64,000 nucleotides of DNA from Desulfomonilia bacterium. Lineage in GTDB: Bacteria; Desulfobacterota; Desulfomonilia; UBA1062. Location: positions 352,001-416,000 of the forward strand of contig JBEKDT010000001.1 in the NCBI GenBank assembly GCA_050014195.1, given 5' to 3'. Numbering within the stretch: the first letter of the stretch is position 1; every line of letters starts with the position of its first letter. Position numbers and translations under genes: made by a program. Positions 3,418-27,959 of the stretch are shown in pieces. The notes under the pieces were generated by a model. It worked only from the letters and a program-made list of their open reading frames with translations. It was not told where the DNA came from and did not search any database.

Positions 3418-4758
3418 ATGGCATCGATTCGGAGGCTCATTCGGAAAAACACAGACAGGGCACGTCATTGGCTGCCTTATGTTCAGGACAGGACAAGAGA
3501 GCTCATCATGCTCGTTCCCAGCCTGTTCTGCCTTGGAGAGGATATGACGGGTATCTTCGCACATCCCACGTGCACGCTAGAGCAATATTCCCTCCTTAAA
3601 AAACATCTGGATGGAAAATTTGATGTAGCGGTTGCAAGGCTGCCGGATTATATCCTCATCGAGAGCCTGATCATGGTCCCTCGGCCGAGCATAGTGAGCA
3701 CGGACTTCTTAAACCTCCTCTTAATCATCATCCCGACCGATGGTGCGCCAATTGAGAAGATCGAGCAGAAATGCTCTGAGATTGAGCTGTTCTTCCGTGC
3801 AAGAGGCATTGGAATGGCCACTCATATCCTCCATGGCAAGCTGCCCCCGCTCACCCTGTATGAAGTCATGCGCCTCGGCATAGTGCTTGCCGGCAGGCAC
3901 CCTATCTTCCGGAGAAACGACGAGACGGAGATGAGTTTTTTTGCAGGGGAGATCGCGGACATCATCAGCGATACCCAAACCATATATTCATCCGAATGGA
4001 ACCCTTTCCAGCATATCCTGGAGTGCGAAACGGAAACAACCATAAGAAAGCACACGTATCATCCCCATATGAACTTACATTCGATGAACCCGTTCATAGC
4101 GCCCTATATGCCGATGCTCATCAGATACGAAGAGGAACTGAATGCAGACATGCTCCTCACCTTAAGACTCTGCATCAGCGCCCTCTTTTTCCATTTCGGC
4201 CCGACCAGGGAAACCTTGGCGGAGATGATGAGGGCATGGCGGCTGAGTGCCACGCAGATCCCTGATGTATCCAATCTAAGCCTTGACGAGGCCATGCGCC
4301 TCAGGAATATTTTTGTCCCCCTTGACGAGCATGAACTTCCCGTCTTCTCCTGGCCCCCTAACCCTTTTTGGCAACTGAAAAATGCAACGCTTGTATGGGA
4401 CGGACCCGGCTGGAGGCTTGGCGAATCAGAGTCATTCCTTCATAAGCATGCCTGGGTGGTCCTTGCCTGGGCGGCCATATCGGGTCTCATCGGGAGCAGC
4501 ACCCTGCTCAAGACCCCGGATGGCCTCTTGCTTAAGACCAATGCCGTGGAGACCCTTGCAAGCCTCAAAGATGCAATCTCCAAGGGAGCCGACATCATCA
4601 CGTCCAGTGATCCCCGCCAGGGATCCATACGCATCAACAGGGGCAGATTCTTCTTCTCTGATTCACCTTATGCAATCTTGGAACGCGGCAGAAAGATCAG
4701 TCTTGTGCTCTTTAAGGAAATAAAGAAAAAGGCCCTGCTCGACGATAGTGGTTTGTAG
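3418..4758 (+). CDS. Divergent, probably inactive class I adenylate cyclase homolog
   Basis: Colinear blocks recall CyaA class I: LVPSLF, KIEQKCSEIE, LYEVMRLGIVLAGRHPIF, MNPF...LRLC, LAWAAISGLI. The catalytic GS/DxD motif is not retained. Confidence 0.6.
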   Translation: MASIRRLIRKNTDRARHWLPYVQDRTRELIMLVPSLFCLGEDMTGIFAHPTCTLEQYSLLKKHLDGKFDVAVARLPDYILIESLIMVPRPSIVSTDFLNLLLIIIPTDGAPIEKIEQKCSEIELFFRARGIGMATHILHGKLPPLTLYEVMRLGIVLAGRHPIFRRNDETEMSFFAGEIADIISDTQTIYSSEWNPFQHILECETETTIRKHTYHPHMNLHSMNPFIAPYMPMLIRYEEELNADMLLTLRLCISALFFHFGPTRETLAEMMRAWRLSATQIPDVSNLSLDEAMRLRNIFVPLDEHELPVFSWPPNPFWQLKNATLVWDGPGWRLGESESFLHKHAWVVLAWAAISGLIGSSTLLKTPDGLLLKTNAVETLASLKDAISKGADIITSSDPRQGSIRINRGRFFFSDSPYAILERGRKISLVLFKEIKKKALLDDSGL

Positions 4759-4772
4759 GGAAAGGATATTAC

Positions 4773-5798
4773 ATGCCCATTAGCCCAGGAATAAGAATCC
4801 TCATGATCGGACCCAATGCCTTTTACCACAAGAACGTAGCGGCCATGCTCGGCAAGATCGGGTTCAACAACGTGGAGCATGCCGACGACGGACCCACCGG
4901 ATGGGAGATCATGAAGAGGATAAACCCCGGTATCGTCGTCGCCCAGTGGGAAATGCCCGAGATGAATGGTATGGCCCTGCTCAAACTTATCCGTTCGGAT
5001 ATGCAGTACTCGGATACACCCGTTATCCTCTGGACCACTGAGATCAATAAGAGCGACGTCATCAAGGCCGGAGAAACAGGGGTGAATGCCATCCTTGTGG
5101 AGCCCTTAAGCCTGGAGATCCTGGATAAAAAGATAAGCCTTATCCTGGAATTCGAAATGAGCCCGTCTGCAAAGAAGGCAAAGGCATATTTGGATAAGGG
5201 CGATTCATACATGAAGGCAGGTCTTTTTGATCTTGCCCTGAAGGAATATGAGCATGTCCTGAGTATCCTGGAATCAGCCGAAGTTTACTACAACATCGGA
5301 TACATCCATACGGCTAGAGGTGAATACGATGAGGCGCTGGCCGCCTTCAGGAAGGCCACCCAGATCAACCAGTTGTTTGCAAAGGCCTACCAGGCCATGG
5401 CTGAAGTATACATCAAGATGAACAATAATGAGATGGCCGAGAAATATCTCAACATGGCAGGCGAGATCTTCTTAGAGCGGGACATGCATGAAAAGGCCGA
5501 GAGTATCTTCAATGAGATTATCTCACTGAACCCGAATACGACAAATGTCTACAACAGCCTAGGCATTATCTATAGGAGGCAGAACCGGCACGCAGATGCC
5601 GTGAAGGTCTACCAGAAGGCAATCAAGATCGACCCTGCCGACGAAAACATCCACTTCAATATGGGCAGGGCCTATCTTGAGATGGAAGAAACCCACCTGG
5701 CAAAGGAATGCTTTATAAAAGCGCTTAAGATCAACCCGAATTTTGAAACAGCCTCCAACATGGTCAAGGCGCTTGAGTCCATGGAAAAGACCCCCTGA
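4773..5798 (+). CDS. Atypical receiver domain plus TPR repeat protein
   Basis: N-terminal REC fold (VAQWEMPEMNG, where DW.MP is canonical) followed by several TPR repeats (AEVYYNIG, VYNSLG, IHFNMG). Confidence 0.85.
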   Translation: MPISPGIRILMIGPNAFYHKNVAAMLGKIGFNNVEHADDGPTGWEIMKRINPGIVVAQWEMPEMNGMALLKLIRSDMQYSDTPVILWTTEINKSDVIKAGETGVNAILVEPLSLEILDKKISLILEFEMSPSAKKAKAYLDKGDSYMKAGLFDLALKEYEHVLSILESAEVYYNIGYIHTARGEYDEALAAFRKATQINQLFAKAYQAMAEVYIKMNNNEMAEKYLNMAGEIFLERDMHEKAESIFNEIISLNPNTTNVYNSLGIIYRRQNRHADAVKVYQKAIKIDPADENIHFNMGRAYLEMEETHLAKECFIKALKINPNFETASNMVKALESMEKTP

Positions 5799-5808
5799 GT
5801 CCAAGCCC

Positions 5809-7029
5809 CTAATAGTATTTCTTCAACTCGAACACCTTTCGGTCTTGTGTCGCCACGATGTGGTAGAACTTATCCTGGGGTATGTAGATGTAAGGCACAT
5901 CCTCTTCCCGCCGGTAGAGAAAGTGCGAGAGGATCATGCGGTTAACGGCCCTATGCCCGATGATCATAATGTTGTCGGGTCTCTGGTTTAAATAAAAGGC
6001 CTTTTTAATGCCGATCTTGATCCGCTCCTTCATGCTCACATAACCTTCGCCGCCGGGGTAGATATAGTTGTACTTATCCGCCTTCCGGGCGGAATAAATG
6101 TCCGGTTTGAAGCGCTGGATCTCGTCATAGGTCATGCCCTCGCAGATGCCTGCATGGATCTCGTTGAATTCCTTTAAGGGTACGATGGTACAATCATCCT
6201 GGAGGGCCTTAATGGCCCTGGCAGTCTGGATGGTCCTCTTCCTTTCGCTCGTAAAGATATATGATATTTTTTTATTTTTAAAAAACCGGCCAAGGGCGCC
6301 GGCCTGATCCTTGCCCTTGGGCGTGAGGTCCGGGTCCCCGCCGATGCGGTCCTCCACGTTAAAGAAGGTCTCGGTGTGGCGGATGAGGAAAAGGCCCTTC
6401 ACCACGTCGGTCACCAGGCAGTCTCTGATGCGGGAATAGAGCGGGAGCTGATCCTCGATCTGCTCGATGAGGACTCTATTATGCAGGGAATCCATGGTGA
6501 TGAAGTTTCGCTCCACATGCAGCGGGCTGTATATTATTCGATAGTATTCGATCCTCTTCTTGAACTCTTTGACAGCCAGCTTATCACTCAGGGATGAGAA
6601 CTCGGGGGCACGCACTTTGTGTTGGATGCTTACATCCACGATATCCTCGTCGTTGTTGATACATTCGATATACAGTATGGGATGGTCTTTCAAATGCTCC
6701 TCGATAAGCTCGCGCCTGTTGCGGCTTACGTTCGTGGCGTCCAGGATGGCCACTTGGCCCTTGTTCTTCAGGTACAGATTTGCTCGGTTGATGTTCATAA
6801 GGGCGAACTTCTTCCTGAGCTCAGCAGCGGCCTTGTTTTCAGGATTATAGAATTCCGCCCTCCATGTTTCCTTGGGTGCATATTTTCTTCTCAGCTCGCC
6901 GTTGTTGTAGATCATGGTATGGATGGAGTTCTTCTGAAAGATGTCCTGTAGACGGTATGCAATCGTGGACTTACCCTGAGAAGGCAGGCCCACCATTATG
7001 ATAAAGAGCTTCTCATCCTTGATGGTCAT
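5809..7029 (-). CDS. Bifunctional 6-phosphofructo-2-kinase/fructose-2,6-bisphosphatase-like protein
   Basis: Kinase domain: MVGLPSQGKS P-loop and DATN. Histidine phosphatase domain: RHTET..N...RIGGD, NEIHAGICEG, RKADKY, GHRAVNR. Confidence 0.88.
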   Translation of the reverse strand: MTIKDEKLFIIMVGLPSQGKSTIAYRLQDIFQKNSIHTMIYNNGELRRKYAPKETWRAEFYNPENKAAAELRKKFALMNINRANLYLKNKGQVAILDATNVSRNRRELIEEHLKDHPILYIECINNDEDIVDVSIQHKVRAPEFSSLSDKLAVKEFKKRIEYYRIIYSPLHVERNFITMDSLHNRVLIEQIEDQLPLYSRIRDCLVTDVVKGLFLIRHTETFFNVEDRIGGDPDLTPKGKDQAGALGRFFKNKKISYIFTSERKRTIQTARAIKALQDDCTIVPLKEFNEIHAGICEGMTYDEIQRFKPDIYSARKADKYNYIYPGGEGYVSMKERIKIGIKKAFYLNQRPDNIMIIGHRAVNRMILSHFLYRREEDVPYIYIPQDKFYHIVATQDRKVFELKKYY

Positions 7030-7200
7030 TGAAACTGAATAACATTCGCCTTCTGGCAACACAAGGCCTTTTGCTCATACGAATGCCTTTTGATCCGGCA
7101 TTATCAATCACTTTTTCCTCTAATGATTTCCCGACCCGATCGTGCCTTAAACCAGCACCAGGGCGCGCTCCACATCGACTTAAGACTTGAGAAAAACACC

Positions 7201-7229
7201 TTGACAAGCCCCTGCTCAGCCGTTAGAAG
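7201..7229 (+). promoter_or_regulatory. Putative sigma70 promoter of the tRNA pair
   Basis: TTGACA-17 nt-TAGAAG, just upstream of tRNA-Gln. Confidence 0.55.
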
Positions 7230-7241
7230 AGCTAAGTACGC

Positions 7242-7315
7242 TGGGGGATGGTCTAATGGCAAGACAGCGGACTCTGACTCCGCTTATCTAGGTTCGAATC
7301 CTAGTCCCCCAGCCA
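7242..7315 (+). tRNA. tRNA-Gln(CTG)
   Basis: Acceptor TGGGGGA/TCCCCCA, anticodon arm GCGGA-CT-CTG-AC-TCCGC, GGTTCGAATCC T-arm, encoded CCA. Confidence 0.96.
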
Positions 7316-7324
7316 AAATGTTTT

Positions 7325-7400
7325 GGTCCCATCGTCTAGTGGCCTAGGACAACGGCCTCTCACGCCGTAAACAGGGGTTCGATTCCCCTTGGGACTACCA
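7325..7400 (+). tRNA. tRNA-Glu(CTC)
   Basis: Acceptor GGTCCCA/TGGGACT, anticodon arm ACGGC-CT-CTC-AC-GCCGT, GGTTCGATTCC, encoded CCA. Confidence 0.96.
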
Positions 7401-7409
7401 GGCAAATCC

Positions 7410-7447
7410 AAAGGGTTGCGTAATTAAGCGTGACCCTTTTTGTTTTT
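7410..7447 (+). terminator. Putative intrinsic terminator after the tRNAs
   Basis: AAAGGGTTGCG...CGTGACCCTTT hairpin followed by a T-rich tract. Confidence 0.65.
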
Positions 7448-7471
7448 ATAGCGTTTATTCCCGCCACTATT

Positions 7472-7615
7472 CCCTCCAGACACAGCGATCACGATGTTAT
7501 TGGGCAACGGGTCAATGGATTTGTCCACGATCAATATATCACCAGAATGTATCCCGGCATCGATCATAGATGTTCCCTCCACCCTGACGAAGAAGGTGAC
7601 TGTTTGGTTCTTCTG
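7472..7615 (-). pseudogene. umuD: UmuD/LexA S24 peptidase fragment
   Basis: Manual translation: QKNQTVTFFVRVEGTSMIDAGIHSGDILIVDKSIDPLPNNIVIAV. The N-terminus and the catalytic-Lys segment are missing. Confidence 0.8.
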
Positions 7616-7660
7616 GTACCTGTGGGTAATGGATTTGATTATTTCTTTATGGTTTCACCC

Positions 7661-7888
7661 TTAATCAATTGGGATGTTCAAAGCCAAGTGTCGTGGAAAA
7701 TGTGGATGTCCACCATGCCTGTCTAGGGCAACAAGCAGATAGACCACTGTTACAACTGTGAGGGCTACGATGAGTGCAATATCTACTCCTTGTTCATTCC
7801 TATGATCATCTTCATTACCGTAGGCATACGCTGTTGAAAAGCCGAGAAAAGACAATATCACCAGTATAGATAGCATTTTCTTGATCAT
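7661..7888 (-). CDS. Small exported/membrane protein of unknown function
   Basis: AGGAGG RBS, signal-peptide-like start, second hydrophobic segment. Confidence 0.6.
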   Translation of the reverse strand: MIKKMLSILVILSFLGFSTAYAYGNEDDHRNEQGVDIALIVALTVVTVVYLLVALDRHGGHPHFPRHLALNIPID

Positions 7889-7944
7889 GATATCCTCCTT
7901 ATCTCTTTTGCTGAGATCCAGACTGTCTTATTTCCTCAAATTTT

Positions 7945-7959
7945 GCATAAGATATGCCA
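7945..7959 (-). promoter_or_regulatory. Possible sigma54 promoter of the small membrane protein gene
   Basis: Minus strand reads TGGCAT-ATCTT-ATGC (GG-N10-GC). Confidence 0.4.
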
Positions 7960-7985
7960 GATATATAGCCTGTAATATCATATAG

Positions 7986-8192
7986 ATGATAGATGTAGTT
8001 GTTGTATTTCAGCCACAGATGATCATAGACCAGAGTACCTTGATCACAGGATCATTCAACTTCACCAAAGCTGCTGAGGATAATAATGCTGAAAATCTGC
8101 TTATCATAAAGGGCAACAAGTCTTTGGTGGACAGATATATTCAGAATTTCAATGAGCATAGAGAGCATTCTGAAAGATATTCCTGGAGATAA
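7986..8192 (+). pseudogene. Phospholipase D-family (Nuc-like) nuclease, C-terminal fragment
   Basis: MIID...ITGSFNFTKAAEDNNAENLLII is the second half of the HxK-x4-D...GSxN motif. The HxK and the N-terminus are absent. Confidence 0.8.
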
Positions 8193-8232
8193 ATTTGCTA
8201 TACAGAACAATTAAGTTAGCTCTTATAAGTGA

Positions 8233-8850
8233 TCAAATAATCACTCCCATTAAACACAGAGAGCCAATCCACACCCTCTCGATGTTTATGACATTGAACA
8301 TCGTATTTCCGTACTCCAGCGGTATTGCCCATTCCACAGCCTCTTTTTCCACCAGATTCAATTGGAAATGACGGTTGAAACTCTCAATGGTTGATTCTAG
8401 ATTTTCTACCATGCTCTCAAGGGAAAGCCTGAGCTGATTCCTCTGCTTATCAAGCTCATGTCCAACATTACTCAACACCCGGGGAAAGTCTGTGAGGATC
8501 TTCGCTGAGACATGCCTATATGATGCGGTCACCTCAGTCTTTGAGATCATGCCATTGGTACAGACGAGCCGTAGAAAGAACGATGATATGGATAACGACG
8601 CTATACCCACTTCACTGTTTGATACAGATATACCCGGAGTCATCCTGTCTCAATTGACCGTGTACATCTTATCTTATCCCCATCCGGAATATTCACAGCG
8701 AGGGAATTATCATCCAACGAAGACTGTACCGGCGTATCGACGAATATCCCAGCTTCATGAGGTGTTCCAAGACCTCAACATTGTCCGTTGGGATACCGTG
8801 GTGTGAATATTGCCCTCACCTCGTTCCGGTCGAACCTGAAGAATAGCTCA
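8233..8850 (-). pseudogene. DUF932-family protein, frameshifted remnant
   Basis: GISVSNSEVGIASLSI..FFLRLVCTNGMI. Upstream pieces lie in other frames ([19 protein letters not shown]; DNVEVLEHL). Confidence 0.7.
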
Positions 8851-8989
8851 TGGTAATCCTCACCACACCCAGGGCAATCATGTCATTAAAATTAGTCAAA
8901 TGTGTATGTCGGCGATTCAAAAGAAGGGAATACTATGGTATATCCAAAAAAACATAGAGTGCATAAAACCAGAATCGAGGAACAAAGCA

Positions 8990-11128
8990 ATGGCAAAGCA
9001 ATCAGACAATGACATCACCAGAGAGACCGCACCAGGCGCACCGCAATCCGTAGACTTCATCCGCACCATCATCAATGAGCACATGCGGACACTCAAGTAC
9101 GACGGCAGGGTGAACACCCGCTTCCCACCGGAACCAAACGGCTACCTGCACATCGGCCACGCCAAGTCCATCTGTCTGAACTTCGGCATAGCAGCCGACT
9201 ACAAAGGCATCTGCAACCTGCGTTTCGACGACACCAACCCTTCTAAGGAGGACCAGGAGTACATCGACTCCATCATGGAGGATGTGCGCTGGCTCGGCTT
9301 TGACTGGGAAAACAGGATATATTATGCATCCGACTACTTCGAGAAGACCTACGAGCTCGCCGAGGAGCTCATCAGAAAAGGCCTGGCCTATGTGTGCGAC
9401 CTGAGCGCAGAAGAGACCAGGCAGTACCGGGGCACGCTCACCGAACCCGGCAAAGACAGCCCCTACCGGAATCGAAGCATGGAGGAGAACCTTGATCTGT
9501 TCCACCGCATGAGGGCCGGGGAGTTCCCGGACGGGGCCCGGGTGCTCCGCGCCAAGATCGATATGGCCTCACCCAACCTCAATATGCGCGACCCCATCAT
9601 CTACCGGACCCTCCGCTCCACCCACCACCGCACCGGCGACGACTGGTGCATCTACCCCATGTACGACTATGCGCACCCTATTTCCGACTCGCTGGAGAAG
9701 ATCACCCATTCCATCTGCACCCTGGAGTTCGAGGACCACAGGCCGCTCTATGACTGGTTCCTGGAGAAGCTCGACATGTACCGGTCCCAGCAGATCGAGT
9801 TCGCCAGGCTCAACCTGAGCTATACCATGATGAGCAAGCGCAGGCTTCTTGAGCTTGTACAGCTCGGAATCGTGTCGGGCTGGGATGACCCGCGCATGCC
9901 CACCATAGCAGGGTTGAGGCGCCGCGGTTATACCCCCGAGGCCATCAAGAAGTTCTGCGACCGCATCGGGGTGGCCAAGAAGGACAGCATGGTGGACATG
10001 GCGCTGTTGGAGTACCACATCCGTGAAGACCTGAATGAAAAGGCTCCCAGGATCATGGCAGTGCTGCAACCGCTTAAGATAACCATCGAGAACTACCCCG
10101 AAGACGCAACCGAGGAATTCGAGATCCCCTATCACCCGGACAATGCAGCCATGGGCTCCCGGAAGGTCCCCTTCTCCCGGACACTTTTTATCGAGCAGGA
10201 CGACTTCATGGAAAACCCACCGGACAAGTTCTTTCGCCTGGCCCCTGGAAGAGAGGTGAGGCTCCGCGGTGCTTACTTCATTACCTGCACCGCTGTGGTG
10301 AAGGACAAGAAGACCGGACGGATAACCGAGCTGAAATGCACCTACGACCCGGCCACCAAGGGCGGAGATGCCCCGGACGGCCGCAAGGTGAAAGGAACGC
10401 TCCATTGGGTTTCTGCCGGTCACGCCGTCACCGCAGAGGTGAGGCTGTACGACCGGCTCTTCATGGTGGAGAACATCAGTGCAGAGGCCGAAAGGACGGG
10501 GAAGGATTACAAGGAATTTTTGAACCCGGACTCACTCGTATCCCTCAAAGGCTGCAAGCTTGAGCCGTCTGTTGCCTCGTCAAGGCCTCTGGGCCGCTAC
10601 CAGTTCGAGCGCCAGGGCTATTTCTGTGCGGACTCAAAGGATTCCACGGGGCAGGCCCTCGTATTCAACCGCACCGTCACCTTGCGAGACTCCTGGGCCA
10701 AGATCGAGAAAACAGCATCAGGCACAAAACCCTCAGCGAAGGGTAAAGCGCCCGAGAAAAAGACCCATGCCACGGAAAAACCTGCGCCCGGGAAACAACC
10801 TGAGATCACCATCGACGACTTTTCAAAACTCGACCTCAGGGTGGGCAAGATCATGGAGGCGTCTGACGTCCAGGGCTCGGACAAGATGGTGCGGCTCATG
10901 ATCGATCTGGGTGAAGGCCGGAACCGCCAGATCTTTGCAGGCATCAGGGGCGCATACCCCGACATGGCAAGCCTCGTGAACAAGAAGGTCATCGTGGTGG
11001 CAAACCTGAAGCCCCGCCAGATGAAGTTCGGCACATCCGAGGGCATGATACTGGCGGGCGGTAGAGGTGACATCTGGAGTATCTGCACCTTTGACGGCGA
11101 CCCCGAACCGGGAGACAAAGTTTCATAA
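8990..11128 (+). CDS. glnS: Glutamine--tRNA ligase with C-terminal Trbp111/EMAP-like tRNA-binding domain
   Basis: [43 protein letters not shown]-rich linker follows, then [14 protein letters not shown]...[20 protein letters not shown]. Confidence 0.95.
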
Positions 11129-11420: not shown

Positions 11421-13259
11421 ATGATGAGCCTGTTCGGATCAGTCAGAAATCTCTCAACCCATACCACAGTCAGGAAGGGAAACAATGAACCTGTAACACC
11501 GGAAACCGGCCAGATCTGGGCAAACTCACTTTCCCGGGTGGACAATATGCTCGACGGCCTCATTGCAGCGTCCGAGTCTGATTTTCTTACCATTGCCGAG
11601 AATCTCCAGGAATACCACATGCGCGCACTGAAGATGTGCGAAAAGTCAAGCGAAGTGGTCGAGATCATGACGGGTGAAGCCCTGAGATCCGCTACGGATG
11701 GGCTGAACGGGATACTCGATGAATTGAAAACCCATCTTGTCGAATCAAAAGGTCACTTTTCACAGATGAGCAGGGTCTTCCAAGAGCATCGTATGGAACT
11801 TTCCAAAATATCATCCAACATCGAGTCCTTCAGATTACATATCCTTAACTTGAACATGCTGGGTTTCCTCACCCAGGTGGAAAACGCACACATTTATACC
11901 CTGAATACCGGATTTTCAACCCTGACTGATGATGTGAGGCATCTCTCCGAGATGATCAAGCAGAAATCTTCACATATCAGTACCGTATCTGATAACGTGC
12001 AGTCATTCGTTTCTCTTGCACTGTCAAAGATCACCGATTTTGAAAAAACCCAGAGTGAAAGTGCGAGGATTACCCTGGAAAAGGCAGTGGCAAACCACCG
12101 CTCCCTTTCTCATAAATTTAAAAGCGCTTCAGAAGCAGCACGGCTCGTCGAGCAGGTAAGCAAAGACATAGCTTCAAGTATCGGTGACATCGTCATCTCG
12201 ATGCAATTTCACGACATCACGAGGCAGCAACTCGAACATGTGAAGGAGGTGCTTGACCATCTCTGCGCACAAATCGGTAAGGATGATTATACGAAACTCG
12301 AACAGGCAGCCATGGTGAGGGATGTCTTAAAGCTTCAGCATGCCCAGCTGAGGCAATCCCATGAGGAGCTTGCCAATGCGGTGTTCAAGGTCATTGCAAG
12401 CCTCCAGAACATTACCAAGAACGTAAGCGATGTCCTCATGGAAACCCAGGATGTAGCATGGGCCTCTGACACACAGGGGGAGTCTTTCATGGAGGGCATC
12501 GACAGCGGGATCACCTCGGTTATAGAGTGCATCAGAGTCATTGCAGAGGAGCATGCAAAACTTTCTGAAACCGTAAACTCAGCGAGCGAAATGGTTTCCG
12601 AGATGTCTGTGTTCGTTAAAGATATCGAGTCGTTAGGGCTGAACCTCCAGCTTATTGCACTGAATGCGCGGATCAAGGCAGCTCACCTGGGGTCGGAAGG
12701 GGCAATGCTTGATACCATTTCGGGAAGCATTTACGAACTCTCAAAGAATGCCCGTGAAGACACAAAGGACTTAAGCCGGGTACTGGCAACCCTTGTGGAC
12801 CTCTCCATAAGTTTCAAGGATGACATGCTGCATATGCAGGACAAGCAATCAAAGACTATCGGGCTCATGGTGGGTAAACTCAGGGACCTGATCGCCTCAC
12901 TGCGCAAGATAAACGATGCGGTTCATGCAATGCTCAACGAAATGAAGGGCTTGGGTGAATCTCTCTTGTTGGATCTCCAGAATACGGCAGATGAGATTAC
13001 GGTGCATGATAAGGTGGAGAATATACTGAAAAAAGTCCTGAAGATCATAGAAGATACCTCTGAGAGTGCCCGCCTTATCTGCCCCATAGGGTTTGAAACA
13101 GTCGCATTATCGCTTTTGTCAAATCTCAATAGACTCTACACCACAAAAAGTGAGAGGGACATCCATGATCAACACATCGAGTCGGGTCCCGAAGGGGCTC
13201 AGGAATCAGAAAAAACAAAGGCCGGTGATGATCATTGGGAGAACTTAGAACTTTTCTAA
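11421..13259 (+). CDS. Soluble chemoreceptor-like protein with two divergent signalling hairpins (paralog 1)
   Basis: No TM segments; SMQFHDITRQQLEHV; LIALNARIKAAHLG; C-terminal NLELF; colinear with 25328..27163. Confidence 0.8.
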   Translation: MMSLFGSVRNLSTHTTVRKGNNEPVTPETGQIWANSLSRVDNMLDGLIAASESDFLTIAENLQEYHMRALKMCEKSSEVVEIMTGEALRSATDGLNGILDELKTHLVESKGHFSQMSRVFQEHRMELSKISSNIESFRLHILNLNMLGFLTQVENAHIYTLNTGFSTLTDDVRHLSEMIKQKSSHISTVSDNVQSFVSLALSKITDFEKTQSESARITLEKAVANHRSLSHKFKSASEAARLVEQVSKDIASSIGDIVISMQFHDITRQQLEHVKEVLDHLCAQIGKDDYTKLEQAAMVRDVLKLQHAQLRQSHEELANAVFKVIASLQNITKNVSDVLMETQDVAWASDTQGESFMEGIDSGITSVIECIRVIAEEHAKLSETVNSASEMVSEMSVFVKDIESLGLNLQLIALNARIKAAHLGSEGAMLDTISGSIYELSKNAREDTKDLSRVLATLVDLSISFKDDMLHMQDKQSKTIGLMVGKLRDLIASLRKINDAVHAMLNEMKGLGESLLLDLQNTADEITVHDKVENILKKVLKIIEDTSESARLICPIGFETVALSLLSNLNRLYTTKSERDIHDQHIESGPEGAQESEKTKAGDDHWENLELF

Positions 13260-13370
13260 ATCTGTAACTAATTTTTTATTGTAATATGTAAGACAAGATA
13301 TTGATATGAACACCATCATGCATGGTTTCCTCGTATATTCATCAGGGAGATAGAGGAGATATCTAAAGAA

Positions 13371-16300
13371 ATGGAACGCAAACAATCTTCAGGCAAAAAC
13401 CTTAAGGCAACAAAATTGCTCCTCTCCCAGACAATTGACTTCCTGCCCGACCCCACCTTTGCCATAGACCTCAGGGGCAAGGTCATCGTGTGGAACCGGG
13501 CCATGGAAGAGCTGACTCAAATCAGGGCACAAGATATGATTGGAAAGGCGGATTATGAGTATGCCCTTCCCTTCTATGATGAAAGACACCCCATCCTTAT
13601 CGATCTCGTACTCCATCCCGATCCTGATTTTGATACAAAATACACTTCCATCCAGAAGAAAGGAGACAGCCTCTTTGCCGAGACCGTCGCATTGTCTACA
13701 AAAAGATTCCTCTGGGGTAAGGCAAGTCCCATTCATGATAACAACGGGCAGATCATCGGCGCTATAGAGTCAATCAGGGATATCACCGAACTCAGACGGG
13801 CCGAAGAGGCCCTTTTGCAAAGCGAGAAGAAGTACCACGATATCTTTCTCAATGTTTCGGACCTATTGATGATCCACGACTTGAAGGGTAATTTCATCGA
13901 GACCAATCTCGCATCCAAGAAGAGCACGGGATATAGCAAGGCCGATCTGAAAGATATGAACCTCAAGGATATCCTGCCCGAACGCTACAAAACCCAGTTC
14001 AAAGACTACATCAACAGGGTGCTTGAGAACGGAAGCGATGAAGGGCTCATGACCATCGTAGCCAAGACCGGAGACGAGAGGATTCTGGAGTATCGCAACT
14101 CCCTCAGACTGGATCCGGAAGGCAGGCCCACAGGTGTCCGCGGCTCAGCCCGAGACATCACCTCCAGGATCAAGGCCGCAAAGCGGCTCAAGAAAGAGCA
14201 TGACTTCATCACCTCCATCATCCAGACATCTCCGGCCTTCTACGATGCCATCGATCCTGATGGCAGGACAATTTTCATGAATCAGGCCATGCTGAACGCC
14301 TTGGGGTATACATTATCGGATGTAGTGGACAAGGACTACGTTAAACAAATCATCCAGGCAGAAGACCGCAGGGCCTTCAAAGATGCCATGGACACCATGG
14401 TATCATCAAGAAAACCGGTGGTGCATGAGAACAGGGTCCTGGCAAAAGATGGGAAGACCTTGCTTGTCCAGTGGCAGGGCAAGGCCATGTACCATGAAAA
14501 CGGCGAGATCGAGTTCATCTTCGGCATCGGCATCGATATCACCGAGCATAAGCGCTCCGAGCAGGCACTTAAAGAGAGTGAGGAGCGTTACCGCATCCTT
14601 GCGGAAAATGCCAGGGATGTCATCTGGATACTCGACCTTGATCTGAAATATGTATACATGAGCCCCTCGATCAAACGCCTGAGAGGCTATAGTGCTGAAG
14701 AGGTCATGAAACAGAGTCTCGACCAGGTCCTTACACCGGAGTCCTACCGGAGAGCCATGGAGGTTTTCCATAAAGAACTCGGCATCGAACGTATGGGGCA
14801 GATACACGGCCCGGATTGGTCGCGGACCATCGAGATCGAGATGTTTTGCAAGGATGGTTCTACTGTCTGGGCAGAAGTCATCATCAATCTCCTCTATGAT
14901 AAAGAGGGTACGCTCACCAGCTTCATGGGCATCACCCGAGATATCACCAAGCGTAAGCGAATAGAGGAGGAACTTCGTGAGAGTGAGGAAAAATTCCGGT
15001 TGCTCTTCGAGAAATCGGGCGACGGGAGTCTGATCCTCGATGAGGGCAGGTTTATCGACTGTAACGAGGCAGCCATTAAGATTGCCGGATGTACCGATAA
15101 ATCCCAATTAATGAATTATCGCCCGGCCGAGATATCTCCCCCATTTCAACCCGATGGCCTCCTTTCTGCAGAAAAGGCGGAAAAGATGATGGATCTGGCC
15201 ATTAAAAAGGGGTTCCACCAGTTCGAGTGGGTGCACAAGCGGTTCGATGGGACCGAGGTGTATCTTGATGTGATGCTCACCGCCATCCCCATGAAGGGCA
15301 GGCGCCTCCTGTACACCACCTGGAGGGATATCTCCGAACGCAAATCGGTGGATGAGGCCCTGCGCGCATCAGAAGAAAAATTCTCCAAGGCTTTTCACAC
15401 AAGCCCGACTCTTATGGCCATCAACACGTTCGAGGAGGGCCGTTATATCGATGTGAATGAGGTCTTCCTCTCTATACTCGGATATACGAAGGAGGAGGTC
15501 ATCGGAAGGACACCTGATGAAATCGGGATTTTCCCTGATACAAGCTATTTAACCACGACCAGAAAGATTCTCGAAGAACAGGGAAAGCTCAACAACTACG
15601 AGCTCCAGGTCCGCACAAAGGACGGTCATTTCCGCAACGGCCTTTTCTCAGGGGATGTCATCAGGCTCCAGGACAAAAAGTATTGGCTGACCGTCATGAC
15701 GGATATCACGGAAAAAAGGCAGGCCGAAGAGGCACTCAAACAGAGCGAGGAGCGTTTCAGGAGAATGGCCGAGGTGAGCCCGGAGATATTCTGGATGGTG
15801 ACCCCGGATTGGGAAAGGGTCATCTATGTAAGCCCCGCCCTTGAGAGGATCATCGGCATGCCGGTCGATGAGGTATACCGGGACCCCAGGGCCTGGCTCA
15901 ACCTTGTTCATCCTGAAGATAGCAACTATGTTTCCTCCACAATCGGTTTCGGACAAGAACATGCCGCAGATGGAGAGTATGACTTCCGTATTATCCGCAA
16001 AGATGGCGGCATGCGCTGGGTCCGTAACAGGCGATATACCATACATGATGCACAGGGGAACCTTATGTACTACACCGGCATAGCCGAAGACATTACAGAA
16101 CGCAAGCAGGCAGAGGAGGACCGGAAGGTTTATGAGGCCCGTCTTATGCGCTCCCAAAAACTGGAGGCCATCGGAACGCTGGCGGGGGGCATTGCGCACG
16201 ACTTCAACAATATCCTCTCAGCCATCATCGGCTATTCCGAGCTTGCCCTGGATGACCTGCCCAAGGATAACAGCGCTAGTATGAACATCGAGGAGGTACT

Positions 16301-17279
16301 CAAGGCGGGTGAAAGGGCCAAGGAACTCGTCAAACAGATCCTCACCTTCAGCCGCCAGAGGGAGACCGAGCGAAGACCCGTGAAGATCGATCTCATCATC
16401 AAGGAAGCCCTCAAGCTCCTGAGGTCATCCATCCCCAGCTCCATTTCCATCACCGAGCGCATCGACCCATCATCGGGTCCGGTATTTGCCGACCCCACAC
16501 AAATCCACCAGGTCATTATGAACCTGTGCACCAATGCCTATCATGCCATGCTGCCCAATGGAGGGAATCTTACCGTATCGCTCGAACAGCTCTATCTCGA
16601 TACGGGGTTCATCTCCCGACACCCGCCGCTCCATGAGGGGACCCATCTGCGGCTCACCGTTTCCGATACCGGCTGCGGCATGGATCAGGAGACACTCAAA
16701 CGCATCTTCGATCCCTTCTTCACCACCAAAGAAAAGACCAAGGGCACAGGGTTAGGGCTCGCCACGGTCCATGGTATTGTGACCGACCTGGGCGGTGCGA
16801 TTTTTGTCACCTCCACCATAGGCAAGGGCAGCAGTTTTGAATTATACCTGCCGACCTTTGAGGAAGAAAGCGATGAACTGGAGAATTTCATCGAAACGCC
16901 CCCACAGGGTGGGGGTGAATCCATACTCCTGGTGGACGATGAAGAGGCAATACTGAACTTTTCAAAGACCATGCTCGAGCAGCTCGGCTATAAGGTTAAG
17001 GGCATATCTTCAAGCGTCGAGGCCTTGAAGATTTTTCGTTCGTCCCCTGACAAACTCGACCTTGTTCTCACAGACCAGACCATGCCCGGCATGACCGGAT
17101 CAACACTCGCAACCGAGATCCTCACGATACGACCTGATATGCCCATCATCCTCATGACCGGTTACAGCGAGACCATCACCCCGGAGGAGGTTATTGCCCA
17201 AGGCATCAAAGAGTATATCGAGAAGCCCTTCACCAAAAATATCATCGCTGCTGCCATCCACAGGTCCCTTAAGGGCTGA
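13371..17279 (+). CDS. Multi-PAS hybrid histidine kinase (HisKA-HATPase-REC)
   Basis: About seven PAS repeats, QKLEAIGTLAGGIAHDFNN, GTGLGL, C-terminal receiver LTDQTMP. Confidence 0.95.
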   Translation: MERKQSSGKNLKATKLLLSQTIDFLPDPTFAIDLRGKVIVWNRAMEELTQIRAQDMIGKADYEYALPFYDERHPILIDLVLHPDPDFDTKYTSIQKKGDSLFAETVALSTKRFLWGKASPIHDNNGQIIGAIESIRDITELRRAEEALLQSEKKYHDIFLNVSDLLMIHDLKGNFIETNLASKKSTGYSKADLKDMNLKDILPERYKTQFKDYINRVLENGSDEGLMTIVAKTGDERILEYRNSLRLDPEGRPTGVRGSARDITSRIKAAKRLKKEHDFITSIIQTSPAFYDAIDPDGRTIFMNQAMLNALGYTLSDVVDKDYVKQIIQAEDRRAFKDAMDTMVSSRKPVVHENRVLAKDGKTLLVQWQGKAMYHENGEIEFIFGIGIDITEHKRSEQALKESEERYRILAENARDVIWILDLDLKYVYMSPSIKRLRGYSAEEVMKQSLDQVLTPESYRRAMEVFHKELGIERMGQIHGPDWSRTIEIEMFCKDGSTVWAEVIINLLYDKEGTLTSFMGITRDITKRKRIEEELRESEEKFRLLFEKSGDGSLILDEGRFIDCNEAAIKIAGCTDKSQLMNYRPAEISPPFQPDGLLSAEKAEKMMDLAIKKGFHQFEWVHKRFDGTEVYLDVMLTAIPMKGRRLLYTTWRDISERKSVDEALRASEEKFSKAFHTSPTLMAINTFEEGRYIDVNEVFLSILGYTKEEVIGRTPDEIGIFPDTSYLTTTRKILEEQGKLNNYELQVRTKDGHFRNGLFSGDVIRLQDKKYWLTVMTDITEKRQAEEALKQSEERFRRMAEVSPEIFWMVTPDWERVIYVSPALERIIGMPVDEVYRDPRAWLNLVHPEDSNYVSSTIGFGQEHAADGEYDFRIIRKDGGMRWVRNRRYTIHDAQGNLMYYTGIAEDITERKQAEEDRKVYEARLMRSQKLEAIGTLAGGIAHDFNNILSAIIGYSELALDDLPKDNSASMNIEEVLKAGERAKELVKQILTFSRQRETERRPVKIDLIIKEALKLLRSSIPSSISITERIDPSSGPVFADPTQIHQVIMNLCTNAYHAMLPNGGNLTVSLEQLYLDTGFISRHPPLHEGTHLRLTVSDTGCGMDQETLKRIFDPFFTTKEKTKGTGLGLATVHGIVTDLGGAIFVTSTIGKGSSFELYLPTFEEESDELENFIETPPQGGGESILLVDDEEAILNFSKTMLEQLGYKVKGISSSVEALKIFRSSPDKLDLVLTDQTMPGMTGSTLATEILTIRPDMPIILMTGYSETITPEEVIAQGIKEYIEKPFTKNIIAAAIHRSLKG

Positions 17280-19827: not shown

Positions 19828-20065
19828 AAAGGTCTATTCATACCATATCGACAATCATGGCTCACCCCCATACCTTGCCCTCTTCCCCTGCCCGGGCAGA
19901 GGGCTGTTTTTTCAGGAACACCATCGGATCGAGACCGGTGGTCCAAGAAGGCGGAGCCATTCAATACCAACTTTCAAGAAATGAGCATGATCTGGTCGGC
20001 AGCCACACAGGCATCCTCGACAAGGATCATTGTTCTCATATCACTGTCGCTTCAGGGAGGAGACA

Positions 20066-22099
20066 ATGTTTAAGAATTTGAAACTAGGTACAAAACTTAT
20101 TCTTGTGGGGTCGATCCTGCTGTTGGTCCCGATCTCAGTTGTGGGTTATCTCTCGGTGAAACAGGCGAGCAAAGGCCTCTCCGAGATCGAGGACGAGCAG
20201 CTCGCAGGGGTCACAAAATCCCTTGCAGGGGCTATCAACAATGCCCTGGATGGGGAGATGATGGTCGTGAAGGATCTCTCCATTGGCCCTGAAACGATCC
20301 GGGCTGCTGCCTCGGTAGCCAATGCAGGATTTCAGGGGGCACAAGGAGATATCACTGCGCTCAATCAGAGACTCAGTCGTTTCGCACAGACCGATGGGTT
20401 GAAGGACAACTCACAGGTAGTCTATGTCACAGATCGCGAAGGCAAGGCATTTGCCGCTTCGGTTGATAAGTACATCGGGGTCTCTTTTTCTGAAAGACAG
20501 TATATCAAAGATGCCCTTGCCGGAACTCCGAACATCGGCAGACCGGATGTCAACAAGGTTACCGGCGAGCTCTTTGTCCCCATTGCTGCACCCATCCATT
20601 CACCGGACGGCAAGGTGGTGGGGGCCGTAGCAAACATCCTTTCCATCGGGATGTTGAGCGATCTGGTAGCCGGCACAAAGACCGGAAAAACCGGATACGC
20701 CTTCATGGTGGACAAAGAAGGGCGTTTCATTGCCCATCCGGACAAGGACAATCTGTTGAAGCTCAATGTAACAACCCTGCAGGGCATGGAAGAGATAGCA
20801 AAAAAGATGCTTTCCGGCCAATCAGGTGTGGAACACTATGTCTTTAAGGGGGTTGCGAAGACCGGCGGCTTTGCCCCGGTGGCTCTGACGGGCTGGAGTG
20901 TCGGGCTTGCACTCCCTGATGCGGAGTTCCTTGCCCAGGCCAATCAGGTTCGTAACATCGTCCTCGTGGTTGGTATCATATTCTTCATCGCCGCCTTTGT
21001 AGTGTTTTTCTTGTTTTCCCGGATCATCACCAGCGGTATCCGTAAGGGCGTCGACCTGGCGGTCCATGTGGCGGAGGGGGATCTCACCGCAAACATCGAC
21101 ATCCAGCAGAAGGACGAGATCGGCCAGCTGGCAGATGCCTTACGAAATATGATGACCAAGCTCAGGACTATCGTGGCGGATGTCCACAGCGCAGCGGACA
21201 ATGTGGCTGCGGGCAGCGAGCAGATGAGCTCCACGGCCGAGCAGATGTCCCAGGGCGCGAGCGAGCAGGCTTCCGCTGCCGAGGAGGCATCGTCATCCAT
21301 GGAGCAGATGGCATCCAACATACGCCAGAACGCGGACAATGCCCAGCAGACCGAGAAGATAGCCATCAAGTCTGCCGAGGATGCCCGCGAGGGCGGCAAG
21401 GCCGTGGTGGAAACAGTATCGGCAATGAAGACCATTGCAGAAAAAATAGCCATCATAGAGGAGATCGCCCGACAGACAGACCTTCTTGCCCTGAATGCCG
21501 CCATTGAAGCGGCCCGGGCCGGAGAGCACGGCAAGGGCTTTGCCGTGGTTGCAGCAGCAGTCAGGAGGCTAGCCGAGAGGTCCGCGGATGCAGCAGGCGA
21601 GATCAGCAAGCTCTCGGTGAGCAGTGTAGCGGTTGCCGAAAAAGCGGGGAAGCTCCTTAACCAGATTGTGCCCGATATCCAGAAGACCGCCCAGCTCGTT
21701 CAGGAGATCACCGCAGCGAGCAATGAGCAGAATACCGGGGCCGAGCAGATTAACTCCGCCATCCAGCAGCTCAATCAGGTGGTCCAGCAGAACGCATCCG
21801 CAGCAGAAGAGATGTCTTCCACATCCGAGGAGCTCTCGAGCCAGGCCATGCAGCTCCAGGCGGCCATTGCATTCTTCAAGATCGACAAGGAAGGCTCCAG
21901 GAAAACCGCAGCAGTGGCCCGAACAATAAAGACCGGTCATGTGGCGGCCAAACCACAGGTACTAAAGGCACACCATGAAGGGCCCAGGGTCATCACGGGC
22001 AGAGACGAAAACTCTTCCCATCACGCGGGTGTGCTCATCAACCTGAGCGACCATGAATCAACTATCGACGTGCATGATGACGATTTCGAGAAGTATTAA
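20066..22099 (+). CDS. Methyl-accepting chemotaxis protein (Cache-type sensor, HAMP)
   Basis: Two TM helices, HAMP (DEIGQLA), [31 protein letters not shown]-terminal DFEKY, GGAGG RBS. Confidence 0.95.
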
Positions 22100-22116
22100 T
22101 AAAAATGAGGCGTACG

Positions 22117-22189
22117 GCATGAGGCACTGGGCTTGGGGAGCTATCTCATGAACAGCGAACCGGACATAACCAAGCACAATGCCTCATGC
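22117..22189. repeat. 20-bp imperfect inverted repeat between mcp and cheW
   Basis: GCATGAGGCACTGGGCTTGG (22117-22136) and CCAAGCACAATGCCTCATGC (22170-22189), 18/20 complementary. Confidence 0.75.
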
Positions 22190-22262
22190 TCAGCCAGAAA
22201 TAACATTGGTCATGAAGATGCAGTGACGGAGACAGACATATAAACGGAACAAGGAGAAGGCA

Positions 22263-22784
22263 ATGAGCGTGGAGACAATAAATGAAACCAGACAGTACCT
22301 TTCGTTCAAGCTCGATGAAGAGGAATTCGCACTGGACATATCCAAGGTCCGCGAGGTGCTCGACTTCACCAAGATAACCAAGGTGCCCCAGACCCCTGAT
22401 TTCATGAAAGGGGTGATCAACCTCAGGGGGGCGGTGGTGCCGGTGGTGGACCTCAATAGGAAGTTCGGGATCAAGGACACGGAAAAGACGGTGAATACGA
22501 GGATCATCATCGGCGAGGTCTCAATCGAAGGCGATGAGACAGTACTCGGAGTACTGGCAGACTCGGTTCACGAGGTCATGGAACTGGAACCCGAGAGCAT
22601 CGAGCCCGCTCCCAAGATCGGCGCAAAGCTCAACACGGACTTCATCAAAGGCATGGGCAAGCGCGATGATGAATTCGTCATGATACTGGACATAGATAAG
22701 GTCTTCTCAGCAGGGGAGCTCTCCTTTGTCAACCAGACAGACCAGCCCGCTGGCTCGGCCGATATGGTGGATCTGGTCGCATGA
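22263..22784 (+). CDS. cheW: Chemotaxis adaptor CheW
   Basis: QYLSFKL...GVINLRGAVVPVVDL...LADSVHEV. Confidence 0.95.
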   Translation: MSVETINETRQYLSFKLDEEEFALDISKVREVLDFTKITKVPQTPDFMKGVINLRGAVVPVVDLNRKFGIKDTEKTVNTRIIIGEVSIEGDETVLGVLADSVHEVMELEPESIEPAPKIGAKLNTDFIKGMGKRDDEFVMILDIDKVFSAGELSFVNQTDQPAGSADMVDLVA

Positions 22785-22806
22785 GAGACAATGAGGACAT
22801 AATTCA

Positions 22807-23688
22807 TTGATGGAACACTCATCCATGCAGAACATACACCCGGAGGTTTCGGCAAAAGCCGCCTTGTCTCAAGAACTCTTTGCCCAGTTGGGCAAGTTCA
22901 TCTACGACACATGCGGCATCAAGATGCCGCCCACCAAGAAGACCATGCTTGAGGCCCGCCTCATTAAGAGGATGAGGTCTCTTGGTCTCGAATCTTTCCA
23001 GGAGTACTGCAGGTACCTCTTCAGCCCGGAGGGAGAGGCCAATGAGCTTGTGCACATGATCGATGCGGTCACCACCAACAAGACCGACTTTTTCCGTGAG
23101 CCGCAGCACTTCGAGTACCTTTTGAATAAAGCCATCCCCGACATTATAGCCGGTATCGGGACAGGCATCCGCAAGACCTTCATGGTATGGTCCGCTGCAT
23201 GTTCCTCAGGGGAAGAGGTCTATACCCTTACTATGGTCCTGGAAGAGTTCGCGAGAAAAAGACCCGGATTCAAGTATATGGTCCTCGGAACCGACATATC
23301 CACAAAGATGCTCGAAACGGCCAAAGCAGCGATATATGATGAAGAGCGTATTATACCTGTCCCCATGGATCTGCGACAGAGATACCTTCTGCGGAGCAAG
23401 GACCCGCAAAAAAAAGATGTAAGGATCATCCCTGAGCTTAGGGCAAAGGCGAGGTTTCGCTGGCTCAATTTCATGGACCAGGACTTCGGACTTCGGGAGA
23501 AGATGGATGTCATTTTTTGCAGGAACGTGCTTATCTATTTCGATAGGCCGACTCAGGAAAAAGTCGTAGGCCATCTGTGCAGGCATCTCACAATCGGGGG
23601 CTACCTGTTCACCGGACATTCAGAGACCTTGAGCGGCATGGATCTCCCCCTGGAGACAGTCGCCAATACCGTCTCGAGGAGGATCTAG
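22807..23688 (+). CDS. cheR: Chemoreceptor methyltransferase CheR
   Basis: TTNKTDFFRE, WSAACSSGEE, FCRNVLIYF, GHSE. Confidence 0.95.
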   Translation: MMEHSSMQNIHPEVSAKAALSQELFAQLGKFIYDTCGIKMPPTKKTMLEARLIKRMRSLGLESFQEYCRYLFSPEGEANELVHMIDAVTTNKTDFFREPQHFEYLLNKAIPDIIAGIGTGIRKTFMVWSAACSSGEEVYTLTMVLEEFARKRPGFKYMVLGTDISTKMLETAKAAIYDEERIIPVPMDLRQRYLLRSKDPQKKDVRIIPELRAKARFRWLNFMDQDFGLREKMDVIFCRNVLIYFDRPTQEKVVGHLCRHLTIGGYLFTGHSETLSGMDLPLETVANTVSRRI

Positions 23689-25322
<1,634 letters not shown>

Positions 25323-25327
25323 ATGTC

Positions 25328-27163: not shown

Positions 27164-27186
27164 GGGGGATGAAAAGGGGGACTTAA

Positions 27187-27895: not shown

Positions 27896-27959
27896 GTGCA
27901 CCTACAAAAAAAGATGATTCCATGAGAGAATCCAACATTTTTCATTGAGGAAGGTAGCT

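Follow-up and report, generated by a model that had tools for sequence, protein, structure and literature searches.

The window analysed here is a 64-kb stretch of bacterial DNA from a Desulfomonilia-type organism (64,000 nucleotides of contig JBEKDT010000001.1), and it carries on its minus strand a gene that an earlier note, made from the letters of the DNA alone, had described as a eukaryote-type enzyme with two functions, 6-phosphofructo-2-kinase/fructose-2,6-bisphosphatase (PFK-2/FBPase-2), in a bacterium. The open reading frame (ORF) spans positions 5809 to 7062 and encodes 417 residues when read from a GTG start; an ATG at 7029 yields a protein of 406 residues with the N-terminus MTIKDEKLF. 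Because a close relative in locus L005 begins MTTKDEKLY and most relatives are 404–407 residues long, 5809–7029 is the likely gene. The possible N-terminal extension of 11 codons from the in-frame GTG at 7062 (7030–7062, minus strand) appears in some gene calls (P0005, 417 residues) and is probably not translated.

The description as a full-length, two-domain homologue held. Pfam places a 6PF2K kinase domain (PF01591) at residues 4–195 (6445–7020, minus strand), where its 132.5 bits lie well above the cut-off of 27 and the E-value is 1.8e-38, and a histidine-phosphatase domain of the FBPase-2 type (His_Phos_1, PF00300) at residues 213–401 (5827–6393, minus strand), with 124.5 bits against a cut-off of 21.7 and an E-value of 5.4e-36. 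The earlier note had allowed for the N-terminal domain grouping with unrelated P-loop kinases instead; models of that kind were far weaker (KTI12, 28.1 bits; AAA_33, 26.9 bits). Among PDB sequences, the top match is human liver PFKFB1 (1k6m, E 3.8e-64, residues 9–385), accompanied by the heart PFKFB2 enzymes of cattle and human (E 1.9e-61 and 4.1e-60, respectively), human PFKFB3 (E ~1e-60) and the rat testis enzyme (E 1.1e-57). Each bifunctional enzyme, including 1k6m, 5hr5 and 2axn, is matched by one alignment that runs over both domains, from residue 8 or 9 to residue 385 or 391. Taken together, the two Pfam E-values and the match to 1k6m exclude a chance resemblance. Domain order is shared with mammalian PFKFB1–4 (1k6m, 5htk, 2axn and 1bif), to which residues 9–385 are alignable with E-values of 3.8e-64 to 1.1e-57. 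The single-domain histidine phosphatases, namely PhoE, the alpha-ribazole phosphatase CobC, the phosphoserine phosphatase PspA, dPGM and TIGAR, share the C-terminal fold and catalytic core but lack a fused 6PF2K kinase; such proteins appear among PDB sequences only from E 6.6e-13, and their NCBIfam matches stay below cut-off.

Structure prediction gave a corresponding picture. From an alignment of 48 rows, AlphaFold2 produced a confident model (mean pLDDT 92.4, pTM 0.84), for which the top 26 listed Foldseek matches in the PDB, at E-values of 3e-35 to 2e-31, all belong to PFKFB3, PFKFB2, PFKFB1 or the rat testis enzyme. The bisphosphatase domain superposes on the rat liver domain (1tip/1fbt) with a target-normalised TM score of 0.91–0.92 and a root-mean-square deviation (rmsd) of 1.9–2.0 Å, and identity to the mammalian enzymes in the structural alignments is ~31–33%. 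Regulatory tails are absent at both ends: the protein starts 8 residues before the first kinase strand and ends just past the phosphatase, so that a tail-less chain of 406 residues stands against full-length crystallised mammalian chains of 432–531 residues. Prediction of a two-copy homodimer, for which the mark is 0.42, returned scores of 0.32, 0.38 and 0.18; this speaks neither for nor against dimerisation.

The protein does not come as a complete stranger to the literature or to the databases. Fructose 2,6-bisphosphate (Fru-2,6-P2) is regarded as a eukaryotic regulator, as the earlier note had held: in one paper (PMC12873801), regulation of phosphofructokinase (PFK) by Fru-2,6-P2 is called eukaryote-specific, citing Michels and Rigden 2006, and another (PMC9721465) names Desulfovibrio desulfuricans as a bacterial exception for PFK-2/FBPase-2, citing Rider 2004. 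Public names among the best 120 cluster records already include '6-phosphofructo-2-kinase/fructose-2,6-bisphosphatase', alongside 'histidine phosphatase family protein', 'broad specificity phosphatase PhoE/predicted kinase' and, wrongly, '6-phosphofructokinase'. Bacterial homologues have thus been on record since 2004 and are named in databases, and the window gene is a further member of the PFK-2/FBPase-2 family. The conflicting public names also matter for annotation, and no NCBIfam model covers the family.

Phylogenetic position and distribution

The earlier note had proposed a phylogeny with eukaryotic and bacterial homologues, and two trees were built. The first comprises 95 rows (85 of 150 listed representatives, 2 cluster members, 7 locus proteins and the window protein), the representatives being restricted to those with a single matched stretch over both domains, to the exclusion of 65 fragments or split matches; in this quick IQ-TREE search (LG+C20 PMSF, 525 columns), the window family forms a 12-row clade with an SH-aLRT value of 100 and a stem of 1.16. 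A second, careful tree of 41 rows and 447 columns was evaluated by ultrafast bootstrap and SH-aLRT. Here the corresponding group, clade A, has 100/100 support as a monophyletic unit, its stem measures 1.29 substitutions per site, and its ten rows are the window protein, a Syntrophaceae protein, the family representative P0062, a 'delta proteobacterium' metagenome-assembled genome (MAG), Desulfogranum, Desulfatiglandales, Scalindua, a Desulfovibrio MAG, a Nanobdellota MAG and one further row. The remaining 31 rows also group together at 100/100 and hold all eukaryotes (including fish, duck, thrips, a choanoflagellate, Pygsuia, a red alga, Rhodelphis, Volvox, Nutomonas, Spironema and fungi) along with Myxococcota and 'Deltaproteobacteria' MAG rows and a group of ~400-residue marine sequences around P0191.

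Clade A thus stands apart from all sampled eukaryotic enzymes. A recent transfer from a eukaryote was rejected, given that clade A nests within no sampled eukaryotic lineage (100/100 in the 41-row tree; SH-aLRT 100 in the 95-row tree), and, judged by these trees, by its distribution and by its base composition, the gene has resided in a prokaryotic clade for a long time rather than arriving recently from a eukaryote. Both trees are unrooted and are compatible with clade A as a sister, an ancestor or an old, fast-evolving offshoot of the eukaryotic enzymes; any distant outgroup would be drawn to the long stem of clade A. The position of clade A outside all sampled eukaryotic enzymes bears on the origin of the Fru-2,6-P2 circuit. 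Within clade A, the Scalindua copy is sister to the Desulfatiglandales row at 98/91, which suggests that the gene was transferred between the phyla Planctomycetota and Desulfobacterota.

Other prokaryote-labelled copies lie elsewhere. The Myxococcota and 'Deltaproteobacteria' MAG copies and the marine copies (P0160/P0275, P0355, P0361 and the P0191 group) are likewise tail-less, at ~397–422 residues, and some carry a prokaryotic label; however, they keep the RHG motif and an Arg at position 323 (window protein numbering), and fall inside the eukaryote-containing side of the 41-row tree as lineages separate from clade A. P0191 itself is 43–46% identical to fungal and animal proteins and is closer to the eukaryotic enzymes than clade A is. 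The P0191 group lies beside clade A in the 95-row tree and with a protist row (98/97) in the 41-row tree; the idea that all prokaryote-like rows share one side of the tree was dropped, since that placement failed to hold in the latter. All these copies have the appearance of independent gains at a later time, or else of eukaryotic DNA. One RefSeq record in the P0191 group is named Methylobacterium sp.

The earlier note had mentioned sporadic homologues in deltaproteobacteria; their existence was borne out, whereas 'sporadic' was not, as they belong to a broad clade in Desulfobacterota and anammox Planctomycetota. At E ≤ 1e-3, a word-indexed search returned 1994 protein clusters, among which the 120 best matches are all 395–460 residues long and 61–97% identical to the window protein, and an exhaustive profile-free search of representatives at 50% identity gave 10447 matches at E ≤ 1e-3, with 260 at E ≤ 1e-30. 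Ninety-four species-representative genomes encode a relative, and 80 of these were kept as loci. By record title, the carriers are Desulfomonilia, Syntrophaceae, Desulfatiglandales, Desulfobacterales/Desulfobacteraceae and legacy 'Deltaproteobacteria' MAGs, together with eight Planctomycetota (Ca. Scalindua, Scalinduaceae, Brocadiaceae and one unclassified; L058, L060, L063, L064, L065, L070, L071 and L080) at 56–60% identity. The nearest records carry the name Desulfomonilia bacterium, at 97% (L007) and 88% (L001, P0006) identity, and one carrier is a cultured strain, Desulfogranum marinum DSM 2058 (L017, 49% identity). Further relatives of ~405 residues come from a Nanobdellota archaeon MAG (41% identical) and a Desulfovibrio sp. 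MAG (P0126, 44% identical). The latter falls in clade A and, like the reported homologue of D. desulfuricans, is deltaproteobacterial; the window gene differs from that homologue in coming from a Desulfomonilia-type organism. In size, age and degree of conservation, the bacterial subfamily exceeds what 'sporadic homologues' would imply.

A search for split or stand-alone forms among proteins of 30–222 residues gave 158 matches at E ≤ 1e-10 but no support for naturally split genes: the best 120 of these are pieces with 48–86% identity, mostly from short contigs, and 15 are marked 'partial' in the name of their source.

Conservation of the two active sites

The earlier note had listed key motifs in both domains, and all of these were confirmed letter by letter. 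Conservation was gauged in an alignment of 126 relatives (the 120 best listed protein clusters and 6 chosen loci), a sample biased towards proteins with at least 49% identity to the window protein. In the kinase domain, the Walker A loop GLPSQGKS (residues 14–21, 6967–6990, minus strand as for all motifs here) has G14, P16, G19, K20 and S21 invariant in 126 of 126; DATN (residues 97–100, 6730–6741) has invariant D97 and N100 and is followed by R105 and R106, which are also invariant; and RIEYY (residues 159–163, 6541–6555), which lies opposite KRIECY of human liver PFKFB1, has invariant R159 and Y163. R47, R48, R72 and K138 complete the set of invariant kinase residues. We take R47, R48, R72, R105, R106, K138, R159 and Y163 to correspond to the fructose 6-phosphate pocket of the mammalian kinase.

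The phosphatase domain is conserved to a similar degree, with R217, H218, N224, G230, G231, R265, E290, Y301, R315, K319, Y330, H359 and R364 invariant in all 126 relatives. The catalytic Arg and the phospho-acceptor His lie in RHT (residues 217–219, 6373–6381), where a Thr replaces the Gly of the superfamily, a change from RHG that the earlier note had reported correctly. E290, in the NE motif (residues 289–290, 6160–6165), lies opposite the acid/base Glu of the mammalian bisphosphatase. R315 and K319 belong to RKADKYNYI (residues 315–323, 6061–6087, which includes RKADK at residues 315–319, 6073–6087), and the second catalytic His is in HR (residues 359–360, 5950–5955), where an Arg follows in place of the Gln found in most rows from the eukaryotic part of the tree. 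The R315/K319 pair, Y301, Y330 and R364 presumably hold the 6-phosphate of Fru-2,6-P2, as in the mammalian phosphatase.

In the PDB alignment, the invariant residues of both domains face identical residues of human liver PFKFB1. In the mammalian enzymes, the residues opposite this invariant set are established ligands of ATP, fructose 6-phosphate and Fru-2,6-P2, and the His is the phospho-acceptor. The window protein shares with mammalian PFKFB the Walker A Lys, DATN, the Arg and Tyr residues of the kinase pocket, the R-H...R...E...H set and the R..K pair, and departs from it with RHT for RHG, Ile for Arg at position 323 and Arg for Gln at position 360.

Predicted function and competing explanations

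Considering the conserved active sites, we regard it as probable that the gene encodes a working, core-only fructose 6-phosphate 2-kinase/Fru-2,6-P2 phosphatase. Less firmly, we propose Fru-2,6-P2 as an internal switch, with class I fructose-1,6-bisphosphatase (FBPase) as its likeliest receiver. In such an enzyme, the N-terminal P-loop domain would phosphorylate fructose 6-phosphate at O-2, with ATP supplying its gamma-phosphate, to generate Fru-2,6-P2, and the C-terminal domain would strip the 2-phosphate through a phospho-His218 intermediate, assisted by E290 and H359. The balance of the two activities would set the level of Fru-2,6-P2 in the cell, which could switch between gluconeogenesis or polyglucose storage and sugar breakdown. 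As there are no N- or C-terminal regulatory tails, control would be exerted through metabolites or expression, and not by tail phosphorylation as in animals. Anaerobes of the carrier type mostly run gluconeogenesis and store polyglucose. The window itself carries a gene of the glucose-1-phosphate adenylyltransferase type (glgC; NTP_transferase with a GlmU/GlgC-like beta-helix) at 61491–62726 on the plus strand, 54 kb away, which indicates that the organism synthesises polyglucose or glycogen.

The candidate receiver emerged from the gene neighbourhoods, in which ORFs were called and clustered for the 80 loci and the window; a whole target ORF was present in 78 loci and the window. In Desulfobacterales and Desulfatiglandales, the upstream flank holds a block of opposite-strand genes, reading outward as a BI-1 family gene, sometimes an M48 peptidase, a radical-SAM protein, a metallophosphoesterase and an HGD-D-like gene. 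Beyond this block lies a class I FBPase gene (PF00316 and PF18913) on the same strand as the PFK-2/FBPase-2 gene. This arrangement, with the FBPase gene 2.7–5.3 kb upstream and 3–5 opposite-strand genes between, was found in 22 of the 78 loci (L025, L029–L032, L034, L040, L044, L046, L047, L051–L057, L067, L069 and L074–L076; for example, L032 2719–3759 on the plus strand), and in 21 of the 23 loci that have a metallophosphoesterase neighbour (cluster 2) and at least 6 kb of upstream flank. The PFKFB proteins across the 22 FBPase loci are 60–97% identical, with a median of 68%. Given this proximity in 22 loci of one subclade, class I FBPase is the leading guess for the target.

Fru-2,6-P2 inhibits class I FBPase at the substrate site, and inhibition of the E. 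coli enzyme has been reported. A PFK with a eukaryote-style effector site is a less likely receiver. According to a review of PFKs (PMC12203962), the Fru-2,6-P2 site of eukaryotic ATP-dependent PFK derives from a duplicated C-terminal half, and the characterised bacterial pyrophosphate-dependent PFKs are all non-allosteric; single-copy bacterial PFKs should therefore lack a Fru-2,6-P2 effector site.

Several observations weigh against this interpretation. Open-access papers and bioRxiv yielded no report of an assayed bacterial PFK-2/FBPase-2, and no NCBIfam model scored above its cut-off, the best being TIGR03162 with 88.5 bits against 162.9. Although each domain matches, superposition of the whole chain on the PFKFB crystal structures reaches a TM score of only 0.49 with an rmsd of ~17 Å, so that the modelled inter-domain arrangement differs from that in the crystals; this difference may be real, or may be an artefact of modelling a monomer. 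The proximity of the FBPase gene may reflect inherited synteny, in that the loci form one contiguous subclade and amount to approximately one event. No PFK or FBPase gene lies within the 64-kb window, and no neighbour is common to all clades among 81 neighbour ORFs scanned, 60 of which came from loci with neither the FBPase-associated block nor the arrangement seen in the window. The Scalindua loci, for instance, instead carry Maf, a Na+/H+ exchanger, MltA and a TPR protein, and carbohydrate-related neighbours are isolated: a glycogen phosphorylase-like gene (L006), an NDP-sugar transferase (L065) and a G3P dehydrogenase (L042). As no partner is shared across clades, the PFK-2/FBPase-2 gene appears to be a stand-alone unit.

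The phosphatase pocket supplies the remaining points on this side. For comparison with the 126 relatives, rows from other parts of the tree were added: 27 from the eukaryotic part (9 of which carry a eukaryotic name or come from a eukaryote-only source), 8 of the P0191 group, 3 of Myxococcota type and 3 from deeper in the clade. At position 219, the Gly of RHG is mostly lost among the 126 relatives (T 112, A 7, G 6, P 1) and is retained in all rows of the added groups (3/3 deeper clade, 8/8 P0191-group, 27/27 eukaryote-part and 3/3 Myxococcota-type). Position 323 is Arg in 27 of 27 eukaryote-part rows and never Arg in clade A, where V (72), I (30), E (8) and T (6) are commonest and the window protein has I323. 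Position 360 is R in 80, Q in 45 and K in 1 of the clade A proteins, and mostly Gln elsewhere. With positions 219, 323 and 360 deviating in this manner, the kinetics and possibly the specificity may differ from those of the eukaryotic enzymes.

These substitutions lend themselves to two other explanations, each of which would retain the homology. The enzyme might use the same fold and chemistry on another physiological substrate, a different ketose or aldose phosphate, such that its product is not Fru-2,6-P2. The clade A stem of 1.29 substitutions per site, an identity of only 30–36% to eukaryotic enzymes, the changes near the phosphatase pocket (Thr for Gly at 219, Val or Ile for Arg at 323, Arg for Gln at 360) and, directly after Walker A, a Thr at position 22 where the other groups have an aromatic residue would all be in keeping with such a shift, as would the statement, in PMC12203962, that no Fru-2,6-P2-responsive bacterial enzyme is established. 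Yet the residues opposite those that hold the hexose 6-phosphate and the 2-phosphate in mammalian enzymes are invariant in 126 of 126 relatives, which makes a changed substrate unexpected, and the variable positions are not catalytic; we consider this explanation unlikely, if worth keeping in view. It is also rather improbable that the protein is effectively monofunctional, with one domain retained as a scaffold or sensor; for instance, a very slow RHT/I323 phosphatase would leave a net kinase resembling PFKFB3 or yeast Pfk26. Eukaryotic isoforms with one crippled activity exist, and the replacement of the RHG Gly (by Thr in 112 of 126 relatives) and the loss of an Arg that all 27 eukaryote-part rows keep at 323 could be read in the same sense. 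However, H218, E290, H359, R217, R265, K20 and D97 are all invariant, and Scalindua, Desulfogranum and L074 retain Gly at 219, a pattern that looks like tolerance and not inactivation. Because position 219 varies among T, A, G and P while the catalytic His stays invariant, RHT is, on the evidence of the alignment, a subclade variant at a position that tolerates small residues, and not a lesion.

The remaining alternative questions the origin of the gene rather than its activity. It is scarcely credible that the gene is not bacterial, whether through eukaryotic contamination, wrong binning of the contig or very recent acquisition from a eukaryotic donor without a settled function. Family members are universal among eukaryotes but of patchy occurrence in prokaryotes, and a nested position among eukaryotic sequences is indeed taken by three other proteins, two from Myxococcota MAGs and one from a 'Deltaproteobacteria' MAG. 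In the window, however, the gene lies between bacterial genes and tRNAs (the stretch encodes PAS histidine kinases, a sigma-54 activator, a chemotaxis operon, FtsEX, HslUV and several aminoacyl-tRNA synthetases), a context that refutes contamination; its GC content of 0.49–0.50 matches that of the flanks (0.48–0.52), its relatives in the 94 species genomes have bacterial neighbours, and clade A falls outside the eukaryote-containing side of the tree at 100/100.

A working PFK-2/FBPase-2 in this clade would be of interest beyond the window. Fru-2,6-P2 is usually treated as a eukaryotic invention, whereas clade A is conserved at both active sites and includes at least one cultured strain. Since the sites are intact and a cultured carrier exists, bacterial production and use of Fru-2,6-P2 could be decided by ordinary enzymology and metabolite measurement. 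A more far-reaching and distinctly doubtful extension makes the clade either the sister group of the eukaryotic enzyme or its source. Fru-2,6-P2 signalling would then be native to anaerobic prokaryotes (Desulfobacterota, having also spread to anammox Planctomycetota), acting there through class I FBPase to control gluconeogenesis and the storage of polyglucose, and eukaryotes would have inherited the regulator from a deltaproteobacterium-like partner instead of inventing it.

Surroundings of the gene in the window

In the window, the PFK-2/FBPase-2 gene is followed by a convergent REC+TPR gene (4773–5798, plus strand), a 446-codon gene (3418–4758, plus strand) and an omptin-like gene. The REC+TPR stop codon TGA ends at 5798, leaving a gap of 10 nucleotides (5799–5808), in agreement with the distance given in the earlier note. 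That note had called any functional link to the TPR gene and its cyclase-like neighbour speculation, and the synteny check left it as such: the arrangement occurs only in 16 loci and the window, all of them close relatives. As the genes are convergent and the adjacency is local to this clade, no functional link is indicated, and the REC+TPR and 446-codon genes were rejected as functional partners. The 446-codon gene always precedes the REC+TPR gene, and both form one ORF of 803 residues in L021 (577–2988, minus strand), so that these two constitute a linked pair to which the PFK-2/FBPase-2 gene does not belong. The 446-residue protein had no Pfam, NCBIfam or PDB sequence match; by language-model features it resembles class I adenylate cyclases (score 0.93, 171 shared), which serves as a lead only.

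Upstream of the PFK-2/FBPase-2 gene, a promoter and terminator scan of 5500–7500 revealed nothing above shuffled sequence, with 4 promoter-like sites against a shuffle mean of 2.6, and an Rfam scan returned two tRNAs only. These are tRNA-Gln(CTG) and tRNA-Glu(CTC) at 7242–7400 on the plus strand, 210 nucleotides from the gene. They are separated by a stretch of lower GC (7400–8900, 0.41–0.43) with no confident gene from a class I aminoacyl-tRNA synthetase of the Gln/Glu type (8900–11128, plus strand), which has 742 residues and a C-terminal tRNA_bind domain. Further along the window are additional genes for PAS histidine kinases and proteins resembling methyl-accepting chemotaxis proteins (11421–17279), and a complete chemotaxis cluster (20030–30071, plus strand) encoding two methyl-accepting chemotaxis proteins, CheW, CheR, CheD, CheB and CheA-CheW.

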